Program-made: the position numbers and the translations under genes
From: Thermoproteota archaeon
GTDB lineage: Archaea > Korarchaeota > Korarchaeia > B14-G2
Direction: 5' to 3'
Assembly: GCA_037917675.1 (NCBI GenBank)
Contig: JAVCBW010000043.1
Span: 1-39,041, forward strand
DNA: 39,041 bases
Notes under the pieces: generated by a model
Databases searched by the model: none
Told to the model about the DNA's origin: nothing
The model's input: only the letters and a program-made list of their open reading frames with translations
Shown: positions 892-37,604 of the stretch, piece after piece
Layout: each line of letters opens with the position of its first letter
Position numbering within the stretch: position 1 is the stretch's first letter

Positions 892-1159
892 CTACACCAC
901 CATAAGCCATATCACAGGCTAAATTTAAGCCTGCTCAGCACCCTTCCAGCTAGGAGATTAGAGGCTATAGAGCTGCTTTCACCATACTAACATAGGCTTG
1001 AGGTGGTAGTTAGCAATATGCCTGCTTTATGCTTGGCATCTAGCCTTGAGAGGTTGTGGTCGAGTCTGGTGGCAGCTGTGTAGTTGAGGCTGGATAGCTC
1101 CCTAGTGCTAGGAGTGGGTTAAACTTAATTTGCTACGTGCATTGAGGCTTGGTGTCTGG

Positions 1160-2575
1160 TTGGATAGGCTGTTTAAGCCTAGGTCTATAGCTGTCGTTGG
1201 TGCCTCTCCGAACCCTCGTAGCATAGGTAACCTGCTGCTGAAGAGGATAATTGACTATGGCTTTCAGGGGAAGGTTTACCCTGTTAACCCGAAGTATAGC
1301 AGCATCCTAGGGCTGAGGTGCTATCCTAGCGTGAGTAGCATAGGTGAGCACATTGACTTGGCTATCATAGTCACGCCAGCTGAGGCTGCTGTCAAGGTGG
1401 CTGAAGACTGTGCTAGAGCTGGAGTAGGCTACGTTGTGGTTGCTAGCGGAGGCTTCAGGGAGGTTGGTGCTAGGGGAGCTGAGCTGGAGAAGATGCTTGT
1501 TGAGGCTGCTAGAGCTGGTGGCACCAGGGTTATTGGCCCAAACTGCATGGGAGTCTATAGCCCACGTGGGAGGGTAACTCTGTTCGAGGGGTTCCCTAGG
1601 GAGCCAGGGGATGTAGCCTTGGTTTCACATAGCGGAGGGATGGCTGAGATGATTGTGATGATGCTAGCTGAGAGAGGCCTCGGGATAAGCTTGCTTGCTA
1701 GCACAGGGAACGAGGCTGACCTAACTCTAGTGGACTTCATAGGATACATGAGCAGAGACGAGGACACCAGGGTCATAGGAGGCTACATAGAGCAGGTGAA
1801 GGATGGGAGGCGCTTCCTAGAGGAAGCTAGGAAGGCAGCTGCAAGGAAGCCTATAGTCTTGATGAAGGTCGGCAGAGGGGAGGCTGGGAGGAGAGCAGCC
1901 TTATCCCACACAGGAGCCTTAGCTGGAGCAGACAAGGTGCTCTCAGCAGCATTCAAGCAAGCTGGAGTCATCAGAGCAGAGACGCTACTGGAGCTAGTAG
2001 AGTACTGCATGACATTCAGCAGGCTAAACCCGATGCCAGTGAGGGGAGTTGGGGTGATAACAGGCCCAGGAGGCCTAGGTGTGGTGCTAGTGGACGCTAT
2101 AGAGCAGGCAGGCCTGGAGGCTCCAGAGTTCACTGGGGAAACCAAGCTCAGGCTCAGAGAGATCCTACCGCCTGTAGCAGGGACCTCAAATCCAGCTGAC
2201 CTCACCCTAGCAATGGTGAGAGACATAGACTTGGTCAGGCGAGCTGCAATAATCCTAGACAAAGACCCTAGGATAGATGCCATGGTGGTAGGGGTGGCAG
2301 CAGTCCTGACTTACAGCAAGCAGATAGCAGAGGAGTTCGCTAAGGTCATGGCTGAAGCCAAGGAGAGCTGTGTCAAGCCTCTAGTAGCAGTATGCCCCTA
2401 TGTAGGTGAGGCAGGAGAGCAGCTGAAAGCACTCATCAAGTCAGGCATACCAGTATACCTCACACCAGAGTCAGCAGCCTCCTCACTAGCAGCTCTCTCC
2501 ACGTACTACAAGGCCAAGATGAGGATCAGCAGGAACTCTACTAGTGAGCTACACAGCTACCATGAAGCCACCTAG
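1160..2575 (+). CDS. acdA: ADP-forming acetate/acyl-CoA ligase alpha subunit
   Basis: LFKPRSIAVVGAS CoA-binding start, IGPNCMG, STGNEAD, catalytic SHTGA and NPADL. Start placed at TTG 1160 (the track ORF begins at 1130). No beta subunit is adjacent. Confidence 0.9.
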   Translation: MDRLFKPRSIAVVGASPNPRSIGNLLLKRIIDYGFQGKVYPVNPKYSSILGLRCYPSVSSIGEHIDLAIIVTPAEAAVKVAEDCARAGVGYVVVASGGFREVGARGAELEKMLVEAARAGGTRVIGPNCMGVYSPRGRVTLFEGFPREPGDVALVSHSGGMAEMIVMMLAERGLGISLLASTGNEADLTLVDFIGYMSRDEDTRVIGGYIEQVKDGRRFLEEARKAAARKPIVLMKVGRGEAGRRAALSHTGALAGADKVLSAAFKQAGVIRAETLLELVEYCMTFSRLNPMPVRGVGVITGPGGLGVVLVDAIEQAGLEAPEFTGETKLRLREILPPVAGTSNPADLTLAMVRDIDLVRRAAIILDKDPRIDAMVVGVAAVLTYSKQIAEEFAKVMAEAKESCVKPLVAVCPYVGEAGEQLKALIKSGIPVYLTPESAASSLAALSTYYKAKMRISRNSTSELHSYHEAT

Positions 2576-2832: not shown

Positions 2833-3159
2833 TTATCCTCTGTCTATCACCTTGAACTCTATCTCATAGAGTGAATCCCCTTCCTTGAGCTTCCCATAGT
2901 ATCTCCTTAAGGCTGCTTTCAGGGTGTCTGCATCTGGGTAGCCTGCCTTCTCAGCGTCCTCGTCTCTGAGCTGGCCTACCTTGATCTTCCTCACCTTAGT
3001 CACCTTGGCTTTAGCGAACTCTCTCCCATCTGAGACCAAGCTGACTACATCCCCCTTCTCTAGCCTACACTCGCTCCACTTCCTGATGGTTGCTGTCTTC
3101 AGCCCATCTAAGATCAGTGGCACCAGGTGCTTCTTGAAGGCTATCCTAGCTCTCCTCAT
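2833..3159 (-). CDS. ASCH-domain protein, YqfB-like
   Basis: ILDGLKTATIR (GxKxxTIR), GDVV, DAEKAGY and YEIEFK; 108 aa. ATGA overlap with tmcA. Confidence 0.88.
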   Translation of the reverse strand: MRRARIAFKKHLVPLILDGLKTATIRKWSECRLEKGDVVSLVSDGREFAKAKVTKVRKIKVGQLRDEDAEKAGYPDADTLKAALRRYYGKLKEGDSLYEIEFKVIDRG

Positions 3160-5426
3160 GGCTCAGCCACCCTGTAGTAGGCTGCTAGCCTCCTAGCTAT
3201 GCTCCTCATCGCCTCAAAGAGCTCACTCTGCTTTCTGAGGCCTATCGCAGGCTTAGCTAGGTCCCAGCTCTTCCCCTGAAGCACCTTGGCTATCAGAAGC
3301 CTCTCCTCACCTTCTGTCAGAGGCCTCTTGCTATGCCACCCGAGGAAGTATGCTCTAGCAAGCTCCACTAGGGCATCACATGTCATCTCATATGAGTTAT
3401 ATCCTCTGATGTACCCTAGCAGCCTGAGCTTCTGGCTATATGTCAGCTTAGGCTTAGCTGGCACGCCTCCTGTAGCCAATAATAGCCTAGCTACCTCAGG
3501 TGGCATCCCAAAGTATATGTCGTGTAGAGACTGTATCACCCTCTTCTTCATCTCAAGGTTAAGCTGCCTCACCATGGCTTCAGCTCTCTCTGTGAGGGGC
3601 TTAGCTACGAAGACGCTGTACTCTCCTGAAACCTGGTTTCTAGTCGGGCTCAGGTGTATTGGTGTGAAGCCATTCCTCAGCCAGAATCTCAGCAGCTCCT
3701 CGCTTGCCCCGAAACCTGACCCAACCCAGTCCATCCCCACCTCCATGGCCTCCTTACAGACCTCCCTCAGAGCCCTAGACCCTAGGCCTCTACGCTGGAG
3801 TGCTGGGTGGGTTGCTATCCTCACTATCCTCCAGCCCCATAGCTTAGCAAAGCCCCTTAGCCCATAGTACATGAGGATTCTTGATGGGATCATGTGTCCT
3901 GGTACATCTCTCTCCCTAGCCATGATCCCCTCTATGACATCCTCCTCAAGCTTCCCCTCCTCAGCTAGCTGAACTGAGACTAGAGCCTCACCTCCTGAAG
4001 CTAGAGCCCTAGCAGAGTGGTGTGGTGCATCTAGGATTATCGCTAGGTCATTAGGTCTATTCCTGTAGTGTGCTAGCACATATATCCCATACCACTTCTT
4101 CAGGAAATCCTCCCCTACCTTAGTGAAGTCTACCTTGATGTACTCTGGATCGCTGAATCCATCTGGCTCACCTGGCTCAGCATCCAGAAGGAGGAGCTTA
4201 TAGAGCCACTTCTCAATAGGGTCTCCTGGAGGATACCTTATCGGAGTCTTCATTTCAACTATCCTTAGCCTAGTGCTCTTCTCCTCAGCTAGTGTAGAGA
4301 GGAACTTCTGGGAGAACCCTCTTCCAGCTCCCTCGTAGCCGTGTATTGTCGAAGAGAATATGGCTATCCTGCTAGACCTGAGTATCTTGAAGAGGATGTA
4401 TGTTGGGATTGAAGCTGCCTCGTCAACGACCTTGACCTTCATATCTGAGTCAGCTAGTGAGGGTGGGCTCAGGTAGACTGCAACTCTCCCCTTAGCTCTC
4501 ACACCTACCTTCTCTCCATCCTTCACTATAGGAGCTGGACTGAGCCCCTGTGCTCTCAGCCCTCTCTCAAGGAACTCAAAGAGTGTGTGTACCCCCTGAA
4601 GGGAGGGGGCTGTTACACCTATAGCCTTGAACTTCCTCATGATCAGAGATATCCCTAGACCTAAGGCAGCTGACTTCCCTCTCCCCCTGTTCGCTATCAC
4701 GACTACAGCATGCCTCCCAGCTTCCCTGGCTTCCTCCACGGCATCTATGACCTCAACCTGCTCATCTGTCAGCGCAAGAGACCTGACTGGCCCCTCAGCG
4801 TTAGCCTTGGGTGGCTGCTGGCTTCTAGCTCTCCTAGGCTTCCCATACACCATCTTAGACTCTAGGTCTATGAGCCAGGTTCCCTCAGACTCTCTTATGC
4901 TCCTCAGGAACCTTAGCTTGAAGAGGTTCCTGACATCACTCTCGCTGTAAGGTGGGCTAGCAAGCTTCTTCTGGAAGAGGGTGAGTGAGCTAAGCCAGGC
5001 TCCTGGTGGTGGCAGCGTGAACACTATTACTCCTCCTCCCCTGACTGTCTCAACGAGCCTACCTATGTCATCTGGCCTCATCTGGGCTGAGAAGTCAGCT
5101 AGGAGCACATCCCATGTGCCACCTAGCGCAAGCTCACTTTCATCGAAGTCTAGTGGAGTCAGGGAGGCTACGTCAGATAGCCTCTCAGCTAGAGCCCTAG
5201 CACCAGCAACCTCCTCTCCACTTGACACATTTGCGTAGAGGACTGTAACTGGCCTACCTCTCTCTCTGGCATAGACCCTGATGGCCTCAGCTACATCCTC
5301 TATTCTTAAGCCTCCAGCTAAGGCTATAAGCCTCCTCTCACCCGACTCTACAGCCTCAGCTGAAACCCTATGCATATACTCCTCAATTAAGGACACTGAG
5401 ACCACCATGGAGCCTGATGCCAGCAT
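3156..5426 (-). CDS. tmcA: tRNA/RNA cytidine N4-acetyltransferase TmcA/Nat10
   Basis: RGRGKSAALG Walker A, VVDEAA, STIHGYEGAGRGF, HYRNRPNDL, GNAT RIVRIATHP..QRRGLGS and a C-terminal tRNA-binding region. The exact start is uncertain. Confidence 0.96.
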   Translation of the reverse strand: MLASGSMVVSVSLIEEYMHRVSAEAVESGERRLIALAGGLRIEDVAEAIRVYARERGRPVTVLYANVSSGEEVAGARALAERLSDVASLTPLDFDESELALGGTWDVLLADFSAQMRPDDIGRLVETVRGGGVIVFTLPPPGAWLSSLTLFQKKLASPPYSESDVRNLFKLRFLRSIRESEGTWLIDLESKMVYGKPRRARSQQPPKANAEGPVRSLALTDEQVEVIDAVEEAREAGRHAVVVIANRGRGKSAALGLGISLIMRKFKAIGVTAPSLQGVHTLFEFLERGLRAQGLSPAPIVKDGEKVGVRAKGRVAVYLSPPSLADSDMKVKVVDEAASIPTYILFKILRSSRIAIFSSTIHGYEGAGRGFSQKFLSTLAEEKSTRLRIVEMKTPIRYPPGDPIEKWLYKLLLLDAEPGEPDGFSDPEYIKVDFTKVGEDFLKKWYGIYVLAHYRNRPNDLAIILDAPHHSARALASGGEALVSVQLAEEGKLEEDVIEGIMARERDVPGHMIPSRILMYYGLRGFAKLWGWRIVRIATHPALQRRGLGSRALREVCKEAMEVGMDWVGSGFGASEELLRFWLRNGFTPIHLSPTRNQVSGEYSVFVAKPLTERAEAMVRQLNLEMKKRVIQSLHDIYFGMPPEVARLLLATGGVPAKPKLTYSQKLRLLGYIRGYNSYEMTCDALVELARAYFLGWHSKRPLTEGEERLLIAKVLQGKSWDLAKPAIGLRKQSELFEAMRSIARRLAAYYRVAEP

Positions 5427-5501
5427 CCTTGAAGGAATCCTCTAGATGACTGCAGCATGCTCAACTTATTAACCTTTAGCCTATAGCCTCCTGGTGGAAG
5501 A

Positions 5502-6080
5502 TTGAGTGCTCTAGATGAGGCCCTCAGGAAAGCTGAGGAAAAGCTCTCTGAGGAGCTTGTTGCAACCCCAGGGCACGTTAGGAGAGTCCTCTTCTGGTGT
5601 GAGAAGATAGCCAAGGAGGAGGAAGCTGACCTGGAAGCTGTCAGGCTAGCTGCAGCACTCCATGACATAGCTATCCCAGATGATAGAGCCATACACTATG
5701 AGCTTGGAGCAAAGATGGCGCTGGAAATGCTCATGAAGCTAGGTGTCTCCAGGGAAGTTGCTGAGAAAGCCTCTCATGCCATAAGGTCTCACAGCAGGTA
5801 TGGTGGCCCAGAGCCAGATACCCCAGAAGGCAAGGTCCTCTGGGATGCTGACTGCATAGATGCCTGTGGAGCAGTCGGTGTCATAAGAGCAGTGCTCAGA
5901 GAGCTACAGGCAGGTAGGCTGAGAGAGCCTAAAGACGTCCTCCCTGCACTTGAGAAGCTAGCTAGCATCAAAGCCTACACTAAAGCTGGTGGAGAAGAGC
6001 TTGAGAGGAGGAAGAGCTTCATAAGCAAGTTCATAGAGGAGCTTAAAAGGGAGCTAGCTGCGTCAGGAGAGCAGCTCTAG
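5502..6080 (+). CDS. HD-domain metal-dependent phosphohydrolase
   Basis: HVRRV, ALHDIA, H, HS and DAD..DA.GAVG motifs. Confidence 0.9.
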   Translation: MSALDEALRKAEEKLSEELVATPGHVRRVLFWCEKIAKEEEADLEAVRLAAALHDIAIPDDRAIHYELGAKMALEMLMKLGVSREVAEKASHAIRSHSRYGGPEPDTPEGKVLWDADCIDACGAVGVIRAVLRELQAGRLREPKDVLPALEKLASIKAYTKAGGEELERRKSFISKFIEELKRELAASGEQL

Positions 6081-6134: not shown

Positions 6135-6782
6135 ATGCCTCTGGTGGCCACACCCCCTGAGAGCAACCTAGGATACTGGGAGATGGTTGATAGAGACCTA
6201 GAGGAGGCTAAGCAGCTCCTTGAGCAGGGGAGCACGAGGGCAGCAGTCATAACAGCGATGATAGCAGTCGAGAAGTCTCTCAGGTTAGCTCTTGGGGTAG
6301 GTGGCCTAAAGCAAGCTGAGCTGCTAGACCTCATGCACTTCGCCAAGAGAGAGAATGTCTGGCTGCCAGCTTGGAAGGAGCTCAAGAAGTGGAGGTATAT
6401 TAGGAACATGTGCCTACACTCCTTCTACATCCCTACGAGAGAGGAAGCTAGAGAGGCCATCGAGTTCGCAAGGTTCTTCGTAGACAAGGCTAAGGACATG
6501 AACGTAGCTGAGAAGGTCAAGAAGAAGGCTAAGAGGGTCTTCAGGAGGCTGGAGGGGAGCTACAGGAAGACGATGATGCTCACAGACAGGATATTCATAG
6601 CTGGGGCAGCAATATTCCTAGCAGGCTGGCTTACACTAATACACCTCACTCTAGCTATCCCTCACCTAGCTCTACTATGGAAGCTGAGGTTCCTCTTCTC
6701 AATGGCAGCTATACCAGCTGGCCTAGGCGCATGCATCCTCTCTCTGCTAGAGAAGTGGGAGAGAAAGGCTCCAGAAGCCTAG
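6135..6782 (+). CDS. HEPN-domain protein with two C-terminal hydrophobic helices
   Basis: Helical HEPN pattern (LEEAK..AAV..A..AVEK.L), R90-N-M-C-L-H95 and PTREEA..AIEFA. Hydrophobic segments at about residues 154-180 and 186-205. TATTAAA lies about 25 nt upstream. Confidence 0.75.
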   Translation: MPLVATPPESNLGYWEMVDRDLEEAKQLLEQGSTRAAVITAMIAVEKSLRLALGVGGLKQAELLDLMHFAKRENVWLPAWKELKKWRYIRNMCLHSFYIPTREEAREAIEFARFFVDKAKDMNVAEKVKKKAKRVFRRLEGSYRKTMMLTDRIFIAGAAIFLAGWLTLIHLTLAIPHLALLWKLRFLFSMAAIPAGLGACILSLLEKWERKAPEA

Positions 6783-7420
6783 TCTACTAGGTATGTCTCA
6801 ACCCTCTCAACACCCCTCCCCGGATTCCTCCTCTTGAGCCTAATCCTCCCGATCTCCCTAGTGTTCCTCACATGCATCCCACCACATGGCATCTCTATCT
6901 CAGCACACCTCCATACCCTGAAGCCAGGCCTATCAGGTGGCGTCTCGATCCTGATCTCATGGCCCTCAGCGATGAACCTGTTACAGAGCTCCTCAACCTC
7001 CCTGAGCTTCACAGGGTCAAGCCTCCCCTCATAAGCGTAGTCAGACCTATCCTTCTTCTCATCAACTCTGCTTCCAACCCTCTCAAGAGGCCCGAACACC
7101 CTGTGGAGGAAGTGCTCCATGATGTGGGCAGCAGAGTGAAGCCTCATAATCCTATACCGCCTATCCCAGTCGATCCTACACCTCACCTTGTCTCCTGGCT
7201 TAAGAGGAGCAGGCTTCTCAAGGTAATGCACGACCTCCTCTCCCTCAAGCTGCGTGTCAACAACCCTATACTCTCCAATCCACCCTGTGTCACCAACCTG
7301 CCCTCCTCCCTCAGGGTAGAAGCAAGTCTGATCCAAGACGACTCTAGCTCCATCAGCCTTGACGACTGTAGCCTCAAACTCCCTCATGTACATGTCCTCA
7401 TAGTAAAGCTTCCTAGTCAA
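6779..7420 (-). CDS. alaXM: Alanyl-tRNA editing protein AlaX-M
   Basis: LDQTCFYPEGGGQVGDTG plus HSAAH and CGGMH zinc motifs; 213 aa. Confidence 0.93.
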   Translation of the reverse strand: MTRKLYYEDMYMREFEATVVKADGARVVLDQTCFYPEGGGQVGDTGWIGEYRVVDTQLEGEEVVHYLEKPAPLKPGDKVRCRIDWDRRYRIMRLHSAAHIMEHFLHRVFGPLERVGSRVDEKKDRSDYAYEGRLDPVKLREVEELCNRFIAEGHEIRIETPPDRPGFRVWRCAEIEMPCGGMHVRNTREIGRIRLKRRNPGRGVERVETYLVD

Positions 7421-8371: not shown

Positions 8372-9028
8372 ATGTGCTTGAGCAGCTTAAGTAGAGTAGC
8401 TGAAGCCATACTGGAATTCGATGAGGAGAAGCTTCTCAAGGAGGTTAGGGCAGCACTAGATAGAGGCTTCGATCCAGTGGAGGTCCTTGAGGAGGGGATT
8501 GCAGCTGGCTTAAGGAGGGTAGGTGAGCTCTTTGAGAAGGGAGAGCTATTCCTCATGCACGTTGTTGTCGCTGCTGAGGCAGCTAAGAAGGCGATAGAAG
8601 AGCTCATTGAGCCTAAGATAATGGAGAGAGGTGAGAAGAGGAAGGGCCTCGGTAGGGTTGTGATAGGCACGGTAGCAGGCGACATCCATGACATAGGGAA
8701 GAACATAGTGGCTGCGATGCTGACTGCATCAGGATTCGAGGTCTATGACCTTGGGAAGGATGTTCCAGTCGAGAAGTTCATAGAGAAGGCGAAGGAGGTT
8801 AAAGCTGACATAGTGGCTGCATCAGCCTTGCTCAGCACATCAATGCCTGTCCAGCATGAGATAGTGAAGGCTCTAGAGGAAGCTGGCCTCAGAGACAAGG
8901 TTAAGGTCATGGTTGGTGGAGCACCAGTCACAGAGGAGTGGGCTAGAGAGATTGGGGCAGACGGCTATGGCGCAGATGCAGTGGAGGCAGTGAAGGTAGC
9001 TAAGAAGCTGATTGGGGTGGAATGTTGA
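8372..9028 (+). CDS. Methyltransferase corrinoid protein (MttC/MtgC-like)
   Basis: Cap domain followed by GTVAGDIHDIGKNIV (DxHxxG), SALLSTS, VGGAPV and IGADGYG. Confidence 0.96.
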   Translation: MCLSSLSRVAEAILEFDEEKLLKEVRAALDRGFDPVEVLEEGIAAGLRRVGELFEKGELFLMHVVVAAEAAKKAIEELIEPKIMERGEKRKGLGRVVIGTVAGDIHDIGKNIVAAMLTASGFEVYDLGKDVPVEKFIEKAKEVKADIVAASALLSTSMPVQHEIVKALEEAGLRDKVKVMVGGAPVTEEWAREIGADGYGADAVEAVKVAKKLIGVEC

Positions 9029-10464
9029 AAAGAGGGCTCAAAGGAGGGATCCTGTCCCCTCTGTCTCTAGCTGAGCTAGATAGCATACACCTCGCTACCC
9101 TAGAGGTTCTAGAGAGGGTTGGGGTCAAATGCGAGTCCAAGCTGGCGCTAGAGGAGTACAAGAAGGCTGGAGCAGAGGTTGAGGGAGACAGGGTTAAGAT
9201 CCCACAGCACCTAGTAGAGGAGGCGCTGAGGAAGGCTCCAAGGCAAGTACTGCTCTGCGGCAGGCGTAGGGAAAACGACATCCTGCTAGAGGACTCCAGA
9301 ACATACTTCGGGCTAGGTGGAACACCTACACCATACATCAGAGACCTAGAGACAGGAGAGATCAGGAGGCCAACTACTAGGGACATGGCTGAGGCAACCA
9401 AGCTAGGAGACGCCCTAGAGAACATAGACTTCATAATGAGCATAGCTGGAGCATTCGACGTCCCATATCAGCTTGAGTACGTGGTGGAGTTCAAGACGAT
9501 ATTCGAGAACACCTCTAAGCCTATAGTCTACTCTGCTCCAGGGAAGGCTAACGCTGAGCTAGTCTTAGAGATGGCTTCAGCCATAGTAGGAGGCTTAGAT
9601 GAGCTCAGGAGGAGGCCAATACTCTCACTCTACAGTGAGACAGCAAGCCCACTCACATTCACGAGGGAGAACGAGAACATGCTAGTCTTCGCTAAGGCCA
9701 AAGTACCGATAACACTTGGGCCGATGCCCATGGCTGGCGCAACTGGCCCAGTGACCATAGCTGGCTCAGCTGTAGTAGGGAACGCAGAGTGCCTTGCTTC
9801 ACTGGCCCTGATACAGGCTGTGAGCCCAGGTGCTCCTGTGGTCTACGCTGGGTGGGCTGGGCTCTTCGACCCCAAGACAGGTAGGCTAGCCTATGGGGCC
9901 CCAGAGTTCACCCTCGGGACAAACCTGCTGTGTGCTCAGATGGCAAGCTACTATGGGCTACCCTGCTTTGGCTTCGGAGGATGCTCAGACTCAAAGGCTC
10001 CTGATGCTCAAGCTGGAGCAGAGGTCATGATGAACATGCTGATAGCAGCCTTGAGTGGAGTAAACATGATACATGACTGCGGCTACCTAGCAGGAGGAAG
10101 CATAGGCAGCATGGAGATGGCTGTAATATGCAATGAAGCCATAGGCTATGTGAAGAGGATCCTGAGAGGAATCAGGGTAGATGACGAAGCCCTGGCAGTA
10201 GACGTGATAGCTGAAGTAGGCCCAGAAGGCCACTTCCTAAGCCACAAGCACACCCTAAGGAACCTAAGCGAGGTGTATATACCTGAGCTATTTGATAGGA
10301 GGCCTGAGAGAGTATGGGAGAAGAGTGGAGCAAAGTGGGTTCACGAGGTAGCAGCGGAGAAGGCTAAGAAGCTCCTAAGAGAGCATGAGCCTGAGCCTCT
10401 CCCTAGTGAAGTGAGGGAGAAGCTTGAGGAGGTGGTCAAGAAGGCAAGAGAGAAGATGCTTTAA
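9022..10464 (+). CDS. mttB: Non-pyrrolysine MttB-superfamily methyl:corrinoid methyltransferase
   Basis: IHLATLEVLE, MAGATGPVTIAG, YGAPE, YYGLPC..GGCSDSKAPDAQAG and VGPEGHFL. There is no in-frame TAG. Confidence 0.93.
   Translation: MLKRGLKGGILSPLSLAELDSIHLATLEVLERVGVKCESKLALEEYKKAGAEVEGDRVKIPQHLVEEALRKAPRQVLLCGRRRENDILLEDSRTYFGLGGTPTPYIRDLETGEIRRPTTRDMAEATKLGDALENIDFIMSIAGAFDVPYQLEYVVEFKTIFENTSKPIVYSAPGKANAELVLEMASAIVGGLDELRRRPILSLYSETASPLTFTRENENMLVFAKAKVPITLGPMPMAGATGPVTIAGSAVVGNAECLASLALIQAVSPGAPVVYAGWAGLFDPKTGRLAYGAPEFTLGTNLLCAQMASYYGLPCFGFGGCSDSKAPDAQAGAEVMMNMLIAALSGVNMIHDCGYLAGGSIGSMEMAVICNEAIGYVKRILRGIRVDDEALAVDVIAEVGPEGHFLSHKHTLRNLSEVYIPELFDRRPERVWEKSGAKWVHEVAAEKAKKLLREHEPEPLPSEVREKLEEVVKKAREKML
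9253..9375 (+). repeat. 123-bp exact direct repeat, copy 2 (inside intact mttB)
   Basis: Identical to 303..425. Confidence 0.95.
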
Positions 10465-12166
10465 GCTCAAGCTCTCTCCAGGAGAGCCTCTGCTAGAGGC
10501 CCTAGAGAAGGCTGGAGCCCACATCGAGGCCCTCTGCGGCGGCAGAGGAGTCTGCGGGAAGTGCAGGGTGAAGGTCGCCAGCGGAGCCAGCATGCTAGAG
10601 GGAGGTGAGCTCCCAGGTGGCTGGAGGCTAGCCTGCCAGGCAAAGGCTGTAGTTCAAGCTGAAGTCGATGTGGAGGTTCCAAGAGAGTCTCTCCTCAGAG
10701 AGCAGAGGCTCCTGTCAGAGGGTCTAGAGCCTGAGGTGGAGCTCTCTCCAGCGGTGGCTGTAGCTGAAGTCGAGGTAGACAAGCCTTCTCTAAGAGACCA
10801 GAGAGCTGACTCAACTAGGCTCATCTCAAAGCTGGAAGCCAAGCTGACGCTGCAAGCCTTGAGGAAGCTACCTTACGTAGCTAGGCTAGGCAGAGTCTAT
10901 GTAGTCAAGGCAGGCAGCCTGGTAGTAGACGTGTCAGCTGAGAAGCCTCGTGTACTGGGGCTAGCCTTCGACCTCGGGACAACTAAGCTAGCTGGGAGCA
11001 TAATAGACCTAGAGACAGGAGCCACACTAGCTTCAGGAGCAGCACTAAACCCTCAGGTCAGACTTGGAGAAGACGTGATAACTCGAGCAGCCTACGCGAT
11101 TCAGCATGGAGTAGAGGAGCTCAACAAGCTCCTGGTAAAGGGGCTGAACAAGCTGGCTAGAAGCCTAGCTGAGGCAGCAGCTGTGAGGCTGGAGGACATA
11201 CGTGAGATAGTAGCTGTCGGGAACACTGTGATGCACCATACTCTACTATCTCTCCCACTAGACTACCTCACTAGAGCCCCGTTCACACCTGTCCTAGGGG
11301 AGCCAGCTACCTTCAAGGCAAGCGAGCTCAACCTCAAGCCAAGTGAAGCTCTAGTCTACCTGCCTCCACCTGTAGCCGGCTTCGTAGGCTCAGATGCGCT
11401 AGCAGGCGTGCTAGCCCTCAAACTGGGCAACAGCTCGATGCTCATAGACCTAGGGACGAACACAGAGGTAGTGCTCTCACATCAAGGCAAGCTATATGTG
11501 TGCTCAGCTGCAGCAGGCCCAGCATTCGAGGGAGCAACCCTATCCCATGGGGTCAGAGCCTCACCAGGAGCCATAGAGAGAGTCTGGATAGACCCAGAGA
11601 CGTTCAAAGTGTACTACAGGACGGTAGCTGGAGAGCCTCCAACAGGCTTATGTGGCTCAGGCGCCATAGACCTCCTAGCTGAAGCCATCAAGGTCAAGGC
11701 AGTAGATGAGGCAGGCAGGATACTGAGCTCACCACTCACAGCTGAAGTCCAAGGTCAGAAGATGATAGTAGCCACCTGGGTAGACAGCAAGCCAATAGGC
11801 TTAACCCAAAGAGATATAAGAGAGCTACAGCTAGCTAAGGCTGCAGTACACACCGCTGCACAAACCCTAATAGAGGAGGCAGCCATAAAAGAGCTAAGCC
11901 AGCTCTTCCTAGCAGGCGCATTCGGAACATACCTGAGCACAGAGAGCGCAGCCAGAATAGGGATGCTACCAGCAGCCCCACTAAAAGAGGTGAGGTACGC
12001 TGGGAACACAGCCCTAGCTGGAGCAAAGGCGCTCCTAAAGAACAAAAGCCTGAGAGCCAAGGCAGAGCAGCTAGCTAAGAGCGCAGTGCACATAGAGCTA
12101 GCAGCACACCCAGGCTTCCAAGAGAAGTTCCTCAAAGCCCTCCTACTCAAACCACGACACAATTAG
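10424..12166 (+). CDS. ATP-dependent reductive corrinoid activator, RACo type (DUF4445, ASKHA)
   Basis: N-terminal 2Fe-2S motif CGGRGVCGKC..RLAC; DLGTT, GEDVITR, GFVGSD, DLGTNTE, GPAFEG, GLCGSG and LAGAFG. The start is uncertain (TTG overlapping the mttB end). Confidence 0.93.
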   Translation: MRRWSRRQERRCFKLKLSPGEPLLEALEKAGAHIEALCGGRGVCGKCRVKVASGASMLEGGELPGGWRLACQAKAVVQAEVDVEVPRESLLREQRLLSEGLEPEVELSPAVAVAEVEVDKPSLRDQRADSTRLISKLEAKLTLQALRKLPYVARLGRVYVVKAGSLVVDVSAEKPRVLGLAFDLGTTKLAGSIIDLETGATLASGAALNPQVRLGEDVITRAAYAIQHGVEELNKLLVKGLNKLARSLAEAAAVRLEDIREIVAVGNTVMHHTLLSLPLDYLTRAPFTPVLGEPATFKASELNLKPSEALVYLPPPVAGFVGSDALAGVLALKLGNSSMLIDLGTNTEVVLSHQGKLYVCSAAAGPAFEGATLSHGVRASPGAIERVWIDPETFKVYYRTVAGEPPTGLCGSGAIDLLAEAIKVKAVDEAGRILSSPLTAEVQGQKMIVATWVDSKPIGLTQRDIRELQLAKAAVHTAAQTLIEEAAIKELSQLFLAGAFGTYLSTESAARIGMLPAAPLKEVRYAGNTALAGAKALLKNKSLRAKAEQLAKSAVHIELAAHPGFQEKFLKALLLKPRHN

Positions 12167-35102: not shown

Positions 35103-35876
35103 CTACTCCCTGCCGCCCGACCTCTCAAACACTTCCACAGCAGGATATACTACGACGCCTTTACTGGTTATCTTGAATGGATGTAGCCTATTGCTATGTG
35201 CTGACCCCCTCATCTTCACTACTTCTATCGCTCTAATCCTCTCTGCCTTACTTCTCATGTTATATAGGACTATGACGCCATCAGCTACATAGGGCTCTAC
35301 TCCAAACAGTGTGGCCTCTGCTGTAGGAGATGTGAGCTCAGCTACCACTAGTGATGTGATGCCCTCAAGCTGTGAGAGCATCCTGATGAGCTGTAGTATG
35401 TGCATCCTAGCCTCAAAGAGCTCCCTATACTGGAGTATGAGCGGGGTCAGAGAGTCTATGACAACTCTCTCCGCCCTACACCTGCTACATGCATCCTTCA
35501 CAAGCGTTATGAGAGTAGTCATGTCAAAGTCTCTTTCACCAAGCACTCCAGGAGCTCTGACTGCAAACATCGATGTAGTTAATGGGGAGTAGAACGGTGA
35601 TGCATCCACTATCTCTATCAGCCCCTTCTCCTTCAGCTTACCTAGATCCCATCCAAACTGCCTTGCAGTATGGAATATAGAGTCTACACTCTCCTCTAGT
35701 GTCACATAGACTCCTCGCTCACCATGCTCTACTGCACCAGCATAGAGGAACTGAAGCGCGAATATAGTCTTACCAGCACCAGGGCCACCGAGCAGCAGAT
35801 ATGTTCTACCCTTAAGCAGACCTCCACCAGCAATCTCATCAAAACCTGGAATCCCACTCCTTACTCTCTCAGACAT
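35103..35876 (-). CDS. Single-domain KaiC-like ATPase
   Basis: SGIPGFD, GGPGAGKT, LEE, RVVIDS, VADGVIVL and KMRGSAH. Confidence 0.93.
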   Translation of the reverse strand: MSERVRSGIPGFDEIAGGGLLKGRTYLLLGGPGAGKTIFALQFLYAGAVEHGERGVYVTLEESVDSIFHTARQFGWDLGKLKEKGLIEIVDASPFYSPLTTSMFAVRAPGVLGERDFDMTTLITLVKDACSRCRAERVVIDSLTPLILQYRELFEARMHILQLIRMLSQLEGITSLVVAELTSPTAEATLFGVEPYVADGVIVLYNMRSKAERIRAIEVVKMRGSAHSNRLHPFKITSKGVVVYPAVEVFERSGGRE

Positions 35877-36086: not shown

Positions 36087-36791
36087 TTGCGAGATTCTAT
36101 GAGGCTGCTCTTCGAGCCTTCTTCTATCATTCCAGGCCTCGAGAAGCTCATATATGAGCCGATTCCTAGTGGGACTATACTGCTAGCTGGCCCACCAGGC
36201 TCAGGTAAGTCTACGTTTGCAGGCCAGTTTCTAGCTGAAGGGCTGAAGCGAGGAGAGCCCTGCTTAGCTGTTGTGACAGACATGCCGCCAGCTCGCCTCG
36301 TAAGAAGCCTAGAAGAGAGGTGGATGGTTAGAGGCAGTCTGGTGAGGGCTCTCAGGGTAATTGACTGTTATAGCTGGAGGCTTGTGAGACCATCCCAGAA
36401 GCAGGAGTATCCTGTAGTGAGGGATCTTACTACTCTGATGGTTGAGATAGAGAAGCTGAGGAAGGGAATGAAGAGGCTAGCCTTAGATAGCCTGAGCACC
36501 TTAGCCTTAGACCATGGGCTTCAGGCTACAAGAGACTTCTTTAATACCCTCAGAGCCAGGGTTCTTGAAGGAAATATGCTGAGCCTTGTGACTCTAGAGC
36601 AGGAGGTCCATACGATTTCATTTGAGAGAACTCTCTCTTACCTAGCTGAGAACGTGGTTAAGCTCAAGCTCACAGAGGAGAAGGGGAAGATAAGGAGGTA
36701 CATTAAAGTGCTATCATCTAGGGTATCTCACTCAACAAGCTGGCTTCCCTACGAGGTGACTGATAGAGGCTTCCTAATAGGGGCCCCCTAG
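36087..36791 (+). CDS. RAD55/KaiC-like ATPase
   Basis: GPPGSGKS, IDCYS, LALDSLS and SYLAENVV.L; an alternative ATG lies at 36099. Confidence 0.88.
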   Translation: MRDSMRLLFEPSSIIPGLEKLIYEPIPSGTILLAGPPGSGKSTFAGQFLAEGLKRGEPCLAVVTDMPPARLVRSLEERWMVRGSLVRALRVIDCYSWRLVRPSQKQEYPVVRDLTTLMVEIEKLRKGMKRLALDSLSTLALDHGLQATRDFFNTLRARVLEGNMLSLVTLEQEVHTISFERTLSYLAENVVKLKLTEEKGKIRRYIKVLSSRVSHSTSWLPYEVTDRGFLIGAP

Positions 36792-36959: not shown

Positions 36960-37604
36960 TTGTCTAGCCCTCTAGATATGCTTGCTGAGCCAGCTGGAGG
37001 GCTTCTGCTTATACTGGAGCCGCCTGGTAGCGGGAAGTCTACTTTAGTTAAGAGGTACTTGGCTGAAGGCCTGGCTAGAGGGGAGCATTGTATGGCTGCT
37101 GTCATAGATGAGTTTCCTCATAGGTTTGAGCTGGGGCTACAGGAGCAAGTTGATGTCGATATATCTGAGAGGCTTGAAGAGGGCTTGCTGCACATGCTAG
37201 ACTTCTTCACCTGGAGGGGTGAGGTGCTTGTTGGAGACATGAAGTATAGGATGGCTACATCCCTGGATGCTATTATAGCTGAAGCTGAGGTTACTGGCTC
37301 ACGGAGGATTGCTGTAGACTCCATTACGACGCTAGCCTTCTACTTCCCAGCTGATGGCGTGTGGAGGTTCCTTGACACGCTTAGAGTCAGGGCAGCTCTT
37401 AGAGGGAGCTCTATTGTAGCGACACTAGAGCAGGGAGTTCTCTCAGAGAGATTTCAGGAGAGCATCAGGCACATAGCAGATTACATGCTAGAGTTGAGGT
37501 TAAGGGAGCGTAGGGTGCTCTGGGGTGAGCAGGCTAGGAGGTATGTTAGGCTAGCTGTGCCAAGAAGAGCTCAGGTAGGCAATTGGGTCAAGCTTGAGAG
37601 CTAG
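36960..37604 (+). CDS. Divergent RAD55/KaiC-like ATPase
   Basis: EPPGSGKST, IAVDSIT and HIADYMLEL. Confidence 0.82.
   Translation: MSSPLDMLAEPAGGLLLILEPPGSGKSTLVKRYLAEGLARGEHCMAAVIDEFPHRFELGLQEQVDVDISERLEEGLLHMLDFFTWRGEVLVGDMKYRMATSLDAIIAEAEVTGSRRIAVDSITTLAFYFPADGVWRFLDTLRVRAALRGSSIVATLEQGVLSERFQESIRHIADYMLELRLRERRVLWGEQARRYVRLAVPRRAQVGNWVKLES

Follow-up and report, generated by a model that had tools for sequence, protein, structure and literature searches.

Positions 2833–5426 of a 39,041-nt contig (JAVCBW010000043.1, forward strand, positions 1 to 39,041; this whole stretch is the window below) of the Thermoproteota archaeon assembly GCA_037917675.1 (GTDB lineage Archaea; Korarchaeota; Korarchaeia; B14-G2) carry tmcA, the gene of a TmcA/Nat10-type RNA acetyltransferase, and, overlapping its end, a gene for a small YqfB-type ASCH-domain protein. 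The same gene order was found in many other archaeal lineages. We put at roughly 0.6 the probability that the two genes form a bicistronic operon in which the coupled ASCH protein hydrolyses the N4-acetylcytidine (ac4C) made by TmcA, whether the mark sits in RNA or in a free nucleoside or nucleotide.

In the mechanism that we propose, a single mRNA would carry both genes, with translation of the second coupled to that of the first. TmcA would write ac4C into RNA using acetyl-CoA and ATP, and the ASCH protein, acting as a YqfB-type amidohydrolase, would split ac4C into cytidine and acetate. Co-expression would tie the capacity for ac4C removal or recycling to the capacity for writing, such that removal scales with writing. 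Removal might take place on RNA, resetting or trimming its acetylation; as a salvage reaction, it might instead act on the free ac4C that is liberated when RNA is turned over. For relatives of the protein, each of the two substrates is supported by two 2026 preprints (Statkeviciute et al., bioRxiv 10.64898/2026.02.27.708502; Relier et al., bioRxiv 10.64898/2026.08.01.741249). We infer the substrate and the reaction of the ASCH protein from these homologues, which were assayed by others.

Results

The tmcA and ASCH genes share four bases

Both open reading frames (ORFs) lie on the minus strand, and the bases 3159–3156 are common to the two: the ASCH start codon ATG occupies 3159–3157 and the tmcA stop codon TGA occupies 3158–3156. 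Read on the minus strand, these four bases are ATGA, which bears out the stop/start overlap described in a first-pass annotation of this DNA. The ASCH gene is the only one in the whole source genome (1.78 Mb, 92.7% complete). Translation of tmcA may in fact begin at the ATG at 5408, since the alignment with the sister-species orthologue (genome G001; 91% identity) starts only at residue 7 of the query (residues 7–756). In the divergent spacer that separates tmcA from an HD-domain gene we found the motif TTAATAAG, a possible archaeal TATA box. These and other features of the window are collected in Table 1. A further minus-strand ORF at 5387–5692 (101 aa) was treated as spurious; it has no family match and overlaps both the start of tmcA and the opposite-strand HD gene.

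The tmcA product (P0002) matched the Pfam families TmcA_N (6.4e-30), NAT10_TcmA_helicase (6.3e-51), and GNAT_acetyltr_2 (4.7e-37), in that order, and a Walker A motif of the pattern A[ND]RGRGKSA is conserved in the TmcA alignment. The match to NCBIfam NF041296, a haloarchaeal, lineage-specific equivalog model with a cut-off of 700 bits, was full-length (18–751) and scored 453 bits, under the cut-off.

Linkage of the two genes recurs across archaea

In the source phylum, the positions of PF04266 (ASCH) and PF05127 (TmcA) matches were compared in 43 species genomes, complemented by blastp on fetched loci. An ASCH gene directly follows tmcA on the same strand in 16 of the 43. Every one of the 5 families and 7 of the 10 genera are represented among these 16 genomes, one of which has its tmcA cut by a contig end. 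Of the 43 genomes, 32 have both genes and 3 have neither; 6 carry only TmcA and 2, which are 70% and 80% complete, only ASCH. In most related loci the ASCH start, as chosen by us, is predicted to overlap the end of tmcA by 1–92 nt. The genes flanking the pair vary by genus, and the pair itself is the sole conserved part. In one genus (g2), 16 genomes carry the two genes unlinked, about 812 kb apart in a genome that consists of one contig, and the ASCH orthologue of this genus is 48–52% identical to the linked ones. At g2 loci L016–L020 the ASCH gene lies between same-strand genes for a DUF711 protein (about 459 aa) and a thioredoxin-reductase-like flavoprotein (about 330–340 aa); this context was Pfam-scanned in three of the loci, and ORF sizes agree in two more. 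It amounts to a second conserved setting of the ASCH gene, shared across the genus.

For a wider scan, the TmcA alignment was run against one genome per prokaryote species, and the best 80 of 515 confirmed loci were examined by searching all open frames for ASCH with two custom profile hidden Markov models (HMMs). Each of the two profiles found an ASCH frame in 35 of the 80 loci. In 33 of them this frame is on the strand of tmcA and overlaps or abuts its stop codon; in one it lies about 2 kb downstream, and in one it is located upstream on the opposite strand. Leaving out five ASCH-less loci with less than 400 nt of downstream sequence, 33 of the 75 informative loci have the pair. Of these 33, seven are contigs that the phylum survey had also counted; the remaining ones are labelled Bathyarchaeia, Nezhaarchaeales or Nezhaarchaeota, Methanomethylicota, Baldrarchaeota, Thermoplasmata or Thermoplasmatales, DHVE2/Aciduliprofundum, Micrarchaeota, Geothermarchaeota, Scotarchaeum, and Nitrososphaerales. 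When 40 ASCH-less tmcA loci were clustered, no alternative conserved downstream partner was detected, only clusters of 3–4 among close relatives. We also analyzed an even draw of 51 genomes, each at least 90% complete, from a second phylum, that of one Thermoplasmata-labelled genome. TmcA was present in 8 of the 51; in 6 of these 8 an ASCH gene follows directly and is the sole ASCH gene of the genome, and the other 2 have no ASCH.

Chance adjacency is excluded, since many lineages show the arrangement again amid flanking genes that are unrelated. The adjacency is not confined to the genome in which it was noticed, and conservation of the linkage so far beyond this genome supports the first-pass proposal that tmcA and the YqfB-like ASCH gene make up a dedicated, translationally coupled module.

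A Methanobacteriota-labelled genome (G045) has four ASCH matches, none of which adjoins tmcA in the locus examined (L072); the open frame around one of these domains (G045:C5:5585-5890) is 505 aa long and may encode a fusion.

The ASCH protein is a structural relative of E. coli YqfB

The 108-residue protein (P0001) matched the ASCH family PF04266 with E = 2.2e-16 (60.9 bits; cut-off 21.2). In a HMMER comparison with PDB sequences, only YqfB was matched (9kyf_A, E = 0.0026; 1te7_A, E = 0.0048). These alignments place the octapeptide GLKTATIR (G-x-K-x-x-T-x-R) on the corresponding YqfB segment, with Lys21, Thr24, and Arg26 numbered identically in the two proteins; the K21A, T24A, and R26A variants of YqfB are inactive (PMC6972931). 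The HAEQE segment of YqfB is aligned to DAEKA, so that Asp68 stands at the position of His70 and Ala72 at that of Glu74, and Tyr89 of YqfB is paired with Tyr87. The first-pass annotation had drawn the same alignment, alanine included; HMMER reproduces it, and the description of the protein as Lys/Arg-rich likewise holds (15 Lys and 11 Arg among 108 residues).

An AlphaFold2 model of P0001 was built on 40 orthologues and has a mean predicted local distance difference test score (pLDDT) of 93.1. The top three PDB matches of the model in Foldseek are YqfB chains (9kyf_A, 9kyh_B, and 9kyf_B), with E-values of 4e-9 to 8e-9, TM-scores (TM) of 0.84–0.92, root-mean-square deviations (rmsd) of 1.0–2.1 Å, and 27–28% identity. 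The best match, E. coli YqfB, has TM 0.87/0.92, rmsd 1.5 Å, and 27% identity. The matched YqfB crystal structures, free and ac4C-bound, outrank EF3133, TTHA0113, PH0355, ZmASCH, and EOLA1. In the model, Ala72 and Gly73 are placed directly after a short helix (residues 66–71), and the chain ends at residue 108 with no C-terminal helix-turn-helix (HTH) extension.

The orthologues keep the catalytic Lys, Thr, and Arg

The orthologue alignment comprises 40 ASCH proteins, including P0001 and its counterpart from the sister species. Lys21, Thr24, Arg26, Gly73, Leu80, Leu84, and Tyr88 are invariant in all 40; the family-invariant tyrosine is thus Tyr88, next to the residue that HMMER aligns to YqfB Tyr89. 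The column of YqfB Glu74 holds Asp in 31 sequences, Glu in 7, and Ala in 2 (P0001 and the sister-species protein), and that of His70 holds Asp in 29, Glu in 5, and His in 5. PF04266 is matched by 40/40 of the proteins, NF003443 by 24/40 at E <= 1e-3, and the isoelectric point (pI) exceeds 9 in 32/40. Given this conservation of catalytic residues together with the mostly high pI, the group appears to consist of enzymes whose surface would suit RNA.

Some members are longer. A complete C-terminal extension of about 90 aa is found in four orthologues, three of them tmcA-linked; in a fifth, also tmcA-linked, it is cut by the contig end. Extension-bearing proteins include the linked ones of genomes G040 and G041, that of a tmcA-linked Baldrarchaeota-labelled locus, and that of an Undinarchaeota-labelled locus in which about 2 kb separate tmcA from the ASCH gene downstream of it. 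The extensions of L011, L015, L059, and L071 (Table 1) can be aligned with one another and are possibly the archaeal HTH described by Statkeviciute et al. In a tree, the five extension-bearing proteins group with an extension-less Micrarchaeota-labelled protein (support 91/87).

Related ASCH proteins remove ac4C in vitro

The modification is reported to be abundant and temperature-responsive in thermophilic archaea (bioRxiv 10.64898/2026.02.27.708502). In the same preprint (Statkeviciute et al., February 2026), every one of the 19 ASCH proteins assayed in vitro, nine archaeal ones among them, took ac4C off E. coli tRNA. The first-pass remark that no archaeal ac4C eraser had been characterised is thus overtaken by these nine proteins. 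Among the archaeal deacetylases, Afu2, Afu3, Pku2, and Pku4 are of the threonine type, and a C-terminal HTH is reported to give archaeal ASCH proteins strong tRNA binding (bioRxiv 10.64898/2026.02.27.708502). For the free nucleoside, human EOLA1 was described as an ac4C deacetylase of nucleotide salvage, N4-acetylation being a block to cytidine deamination (Relier et al., August 2026, bioRxiv 10.64898/2026.08.01.741249).

Discussion

Several observations weigh against hydrolysis of ac4C by the coupled ASCH protein as a general explanation or as one for this locus. The pair is absent from 42 of the 75 informative tmcA loci, with labels such as Desulfurococcaceae, Ignisphaera, Thermofilum, Thermoproteaceae, Sulfolobales, Methanobacteriota, Nanoarchaeota-type, Woesearchaeota, and others, and in another genus of the source phylum TmcA is present in 4/4 genomes and ASCH in 0/4. 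The sole NCBIfam match of P0001, to the YqfB equivalog NF003443, fell short of the model's cut-off (43.9 bits; cut-off 93). Joint production of a writer and an eraser would lead to futile cycling, unless differences in substrate or kinetics keep the two reactions apart. Deletion of yqfB left RNA ac4C unchanged in E. coli (bioRxiv 10.64898/2026.02.27.708502), so that even the model enzyme has only a tentative role in vivo. The remaining points concern the copy of this genus. Ala72 is confined to P0001 and the sister-species protein among the 40 orthologues, the other 38 having Asp or Glu, and so is Leu12, where 38 of 38 others have a Tyr or Phe in the pocket. The genus sits on a long ASCH stem branch (1.53 substitutions per site, support 100/100), and the neighbour genus has Asp72. 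The ratio of ASCH to TmcA identity is 0.60–0.82 between this genus and others, compared with 0.80–1.06 among the others.

These peculiarities raise the possibility that in this genus the coupled ASCH protein, evolved from an eraser, became a binder of ac4C (a reader, or a partner of TmcA that handles its product) or a very slow, high-affinity deacetylase, that is, a hydrolase turned natural substrate trap. We consider such a change possible but on the whole unlikely. Alanine at the acid column is rare in the wider family too, being found in 3 of 92 short relatives collected by HMMER search (the two members of the genus and one partial Thermofilum-labelled protein). Position 12, counting back from the conserved Lys, appears to correspond to Tyr14 of a Thermus ASCH protein, a residue implicated in nucleoside positioning (Statkeviciute et al., bioRxiv 10.64898/2026.02.27.708502). 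In YqfB, the E74A replacement cuts kcat on ac4C about 2000-fold (157 to 0.07 per s) and brings Km down from 62 to 2 µM (PMC6972931, Table 3); by analogy, with Ala at the general-acid position and Leu in place of the pocket aromatic, we expect a lower rate and perhaps tighter binding in the enzyme of this genus than in its relatives. Comparison of the two species gave a ratio of nonsynonymous to synonymous substitution rates (dN/dS) of 0.099 for ASCH and 0.088 for TmcA; the ASCH gene is therefore not decaying but under purifying selection, and a long stem branch combined with a dN/dS of 0.10 within the genus agrees with a functional shift that later came under constraint. The strongly basic character of P0001 would also suit a binder. 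No further members of the lineage came to light: a protein homologue search with P0001 returned nothing beyond the sister-species protein, and a metagenome scan returned the sister contig and two unrelated ASCH genes, with no additional carriers of Ala72. Set against a loss of catalysis, P0001 retains Lys21, Thr24, and Arg26, all required in YqfB, and its Glu70, which in the 40-sequence alignment is found only in P0001 and the sister-species protein and is likewise Glu in YqfB, might take over the role of the acid. ASCH activity is, moreover, reported not to be strictly tied to single motif residues (bioRxiv 10.64898/2026.02.27.708502). Taken together, the conserved catalytic residues favour an enzyme for the family, and for this copy the loss of the acid leaves a reader or a slow enzyme as a candidate.

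Two other explanations appear less probable still. The ASCH protein might be an adaptor rather than a catalyst: in complex with TmcA, it would target RNA and hand over substrates, by analogy with Tan1/THUMPD1 for eukaryotic Nat10. The gene overlap, which suggests production in step with TmcA, the PUA-like fold, and the mostly basic nature of the family agree with such a role, as does the C-terminal extension of some linked orthologues, given that an HTH of this kind confers strong tRNA binding (bioRxiv 10.64898/2026.02.27.708502). An adaptor would have no need, however, of the strict Lys/Thr/Arg set and of the acid kept in 38 of 40 orthologues, no TmcA-ASCH fusion was found among 19 longer relatives scanned, and the unlinked genus keeps its ASCH orthologue away from tmcA in 16 genomes; we regard the adaptor as improbable. 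Finally, the adjacency could have no bearing on ac4C, the ASCH protein being, for example, a ribonuclease or a sensor of DNA modification, the latter having been proposed for ASCH proteins in other contexts. ASCH proteins are functionally diverse: ZmASCH is a single-stranded RNA nuclease (bioRxiv 10.64898/2026.02.27.708502), and ASCH domains occur in restriction-modification and GNAT-EVE contexts (PMC7641849). Yet P0001 best matches YqfB rather than ZmASCH (TM 0.87 versus 0.67–0.71), many lineages have the gene beside tmcA with otherwise different neighbours, and the tmcA-linked copy is the sole ASCH gene in 6/6 linked genomes of the second phylum. We attach very little weight to a role of this sort, and keep hydrolysis of TmcA-made ac4C as the preferred reading of the gene pair.

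Ways of removing and recycling ac4C are just beginning to be understood. That a remover-like gene overlaps the writer gene in many lineages of archaea gives strong genomic support to the view that both activities belong together. The acid-less variant, which is natural and under purifying selection, forms with its Asp-bearing sisters a ready-made pair for testing whether the partnership depends on hydrolysis. Should the variant be a substrate trap, its comparison with the Asp-bearing sisters would show whether selection keeps binding or hydrolysis beside tmcA.

Neighbouring genes and other features of the window

The HD-domain, HEPN-domain, and AlaX-like tRNA-editing-domain genes found on the far side of tmcA also adjoin the pair in the sister species (L002). 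The ASCH gene is faced convergently by a gene for the alpha subunit of an ADP-forming acetate-CoA ligase, an enzyme that would connect acetate, the product of one enzyme of the pair, with acetyl-CoA, the donor of the other. We rejected it as a member of the module; it is convergent and is kept as a neighbour only in the sister species (L002), not in other genera.

Elsewhere in the window, 8372–12166 (plus strand) carries genes for a corrinoid protein, an MttB-family methyltransferase, and a RACo-type corrinoid activase. The MttB-family ORF is uninterrupted and has a full-length Pfam match; the Rfam family PYLIS_3 matches within it at 42.4 bits (gathering score 38), which probably reflects mttB homology rather than a working pyrrolysine signal. 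Three KaiC-like ATPase genes are located in a row near the end of the window.

Table 1. Features of the tmcA-ASCH locus and the rest of the window, and extended ASCH proteins at related loci (given as locus:positions)
Feature	Position	Strand	Remarks
tmcA, RNA cytidine N4-acetyltransferase (TmcA/Nat10 type)	3156..5426	-	756 aa counted from first ATG
YqfB-type ASCH gene (P0001)	2833..3159	-	108 aa, pI 9.77; Pfam, NCBIfam, and PDB matches
ATGA overlap of tmcA stop and ASCH start	3156..3159	-	read from the sequence
Shine-Dalgarno-like GGGTGG inside the 3' end of tmcA	3167..3172	-	7 nt before ASCH ATG; putative ribosome-binding site
TTAATAAG, possible archaeal TATA box	5465..5472	-	42 nt upstream of tmcA ATG 5426; suggested by the sequence
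HD-domain gene	5502..6080	+	divergent from tmcA
HEPN-domain gene	6135..6782	+
AlaX-like tRNA-editing-domain gene	6779..7420	-
ADP-forming acetate-CoA ligase, alpha subunit	1130..2575	+	convergent to ASCH gene
Corrinoid-protein gene	8372..9028	+
MttB-family methyltransferase	9022..10464	+	480 aa
PYLIS_3 (Rfam)	9982..10081		within the MttB-family ORF
RACo-type corrinoid activase	10424..12166	+
KaiC-like ATPase	35103..35876	-
KaiC-like ATPase	36087..36791	+
KaiC-like ATPase	36960..37604	+
ASCH with C-terminal extension of about 90 aa	L011:2085-2702		tmcA-linked
ASCH with C-terminal extension of about 90 aa	L015:2067-2831		tmcA-linked
ASCH with C-terminal extension of about 90 aa	L059:5837-6454		tmcA-linked
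ASCH with C-terminal extension of about 90 aa	L071:7772-8368		about 2 kb downstream of tmcA

Comparison with known systems

The locus is a further example of a known pairing of writer and remover, and the pairing itself is not new. Relier et al. probably used the tmcA gene neighbourhood as a lead, judging from term counts in their text (tmcA 2, operon 5, gene neighborhood 2, "conserved gene neighborhood" 1, prokaryot 3, archaea 0). The main text of Statkeviciute et al. makes no mention of tmcA gene order and uses "operon" once, for another enzyme; linkage to tmcA is likewise not mentioned in the passages of the YqfB literature that were searched.

The closest solved fold is that of E. coli YqfB (PDB 9KYF, 9KYH, 1TE7; PMC6972931), which like P0001 consists of a single ASCH domain of about 105 residues with the GxKxxTxR motif and Lys21, Thr24, and Arg26. 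P0001 differs in having Ala72 for Glu74 and Asp68 for His70, in being strongly basic, and in that its gene overlaps tmcA. Afu2, Afu3, Pku2, and Pku4 share archaeal origin and the GK..T..R motif with it, are mostly basic, and are reported to deacetylate both tRNA and the free nucleoside in vitro; Afu3, Pku2, and Pku4 differ from it in having a C-terminal HTH. Human EOLA1 resembles it as an ASCH-domain protein assigned to ac4C removal; EOLA1 has, in contrast, a glutamate-type GK..E..R motif (bioRxiv 10.64898/2026.02.27.708502), is eukaryotic, belongs to no operon, and is a weak fold match to the P0001 model (5y7d, TM 0.55/0.39). Closest in genetic organization are the other archaeal tmcA-ASCH pairs, with the same gene order on the same strand and overlapping or abutting genes. 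Some of these carry the extension of about 90 aa, whereas the combination of Ala72, Leu12, and a long branch is seen in this genus alone.

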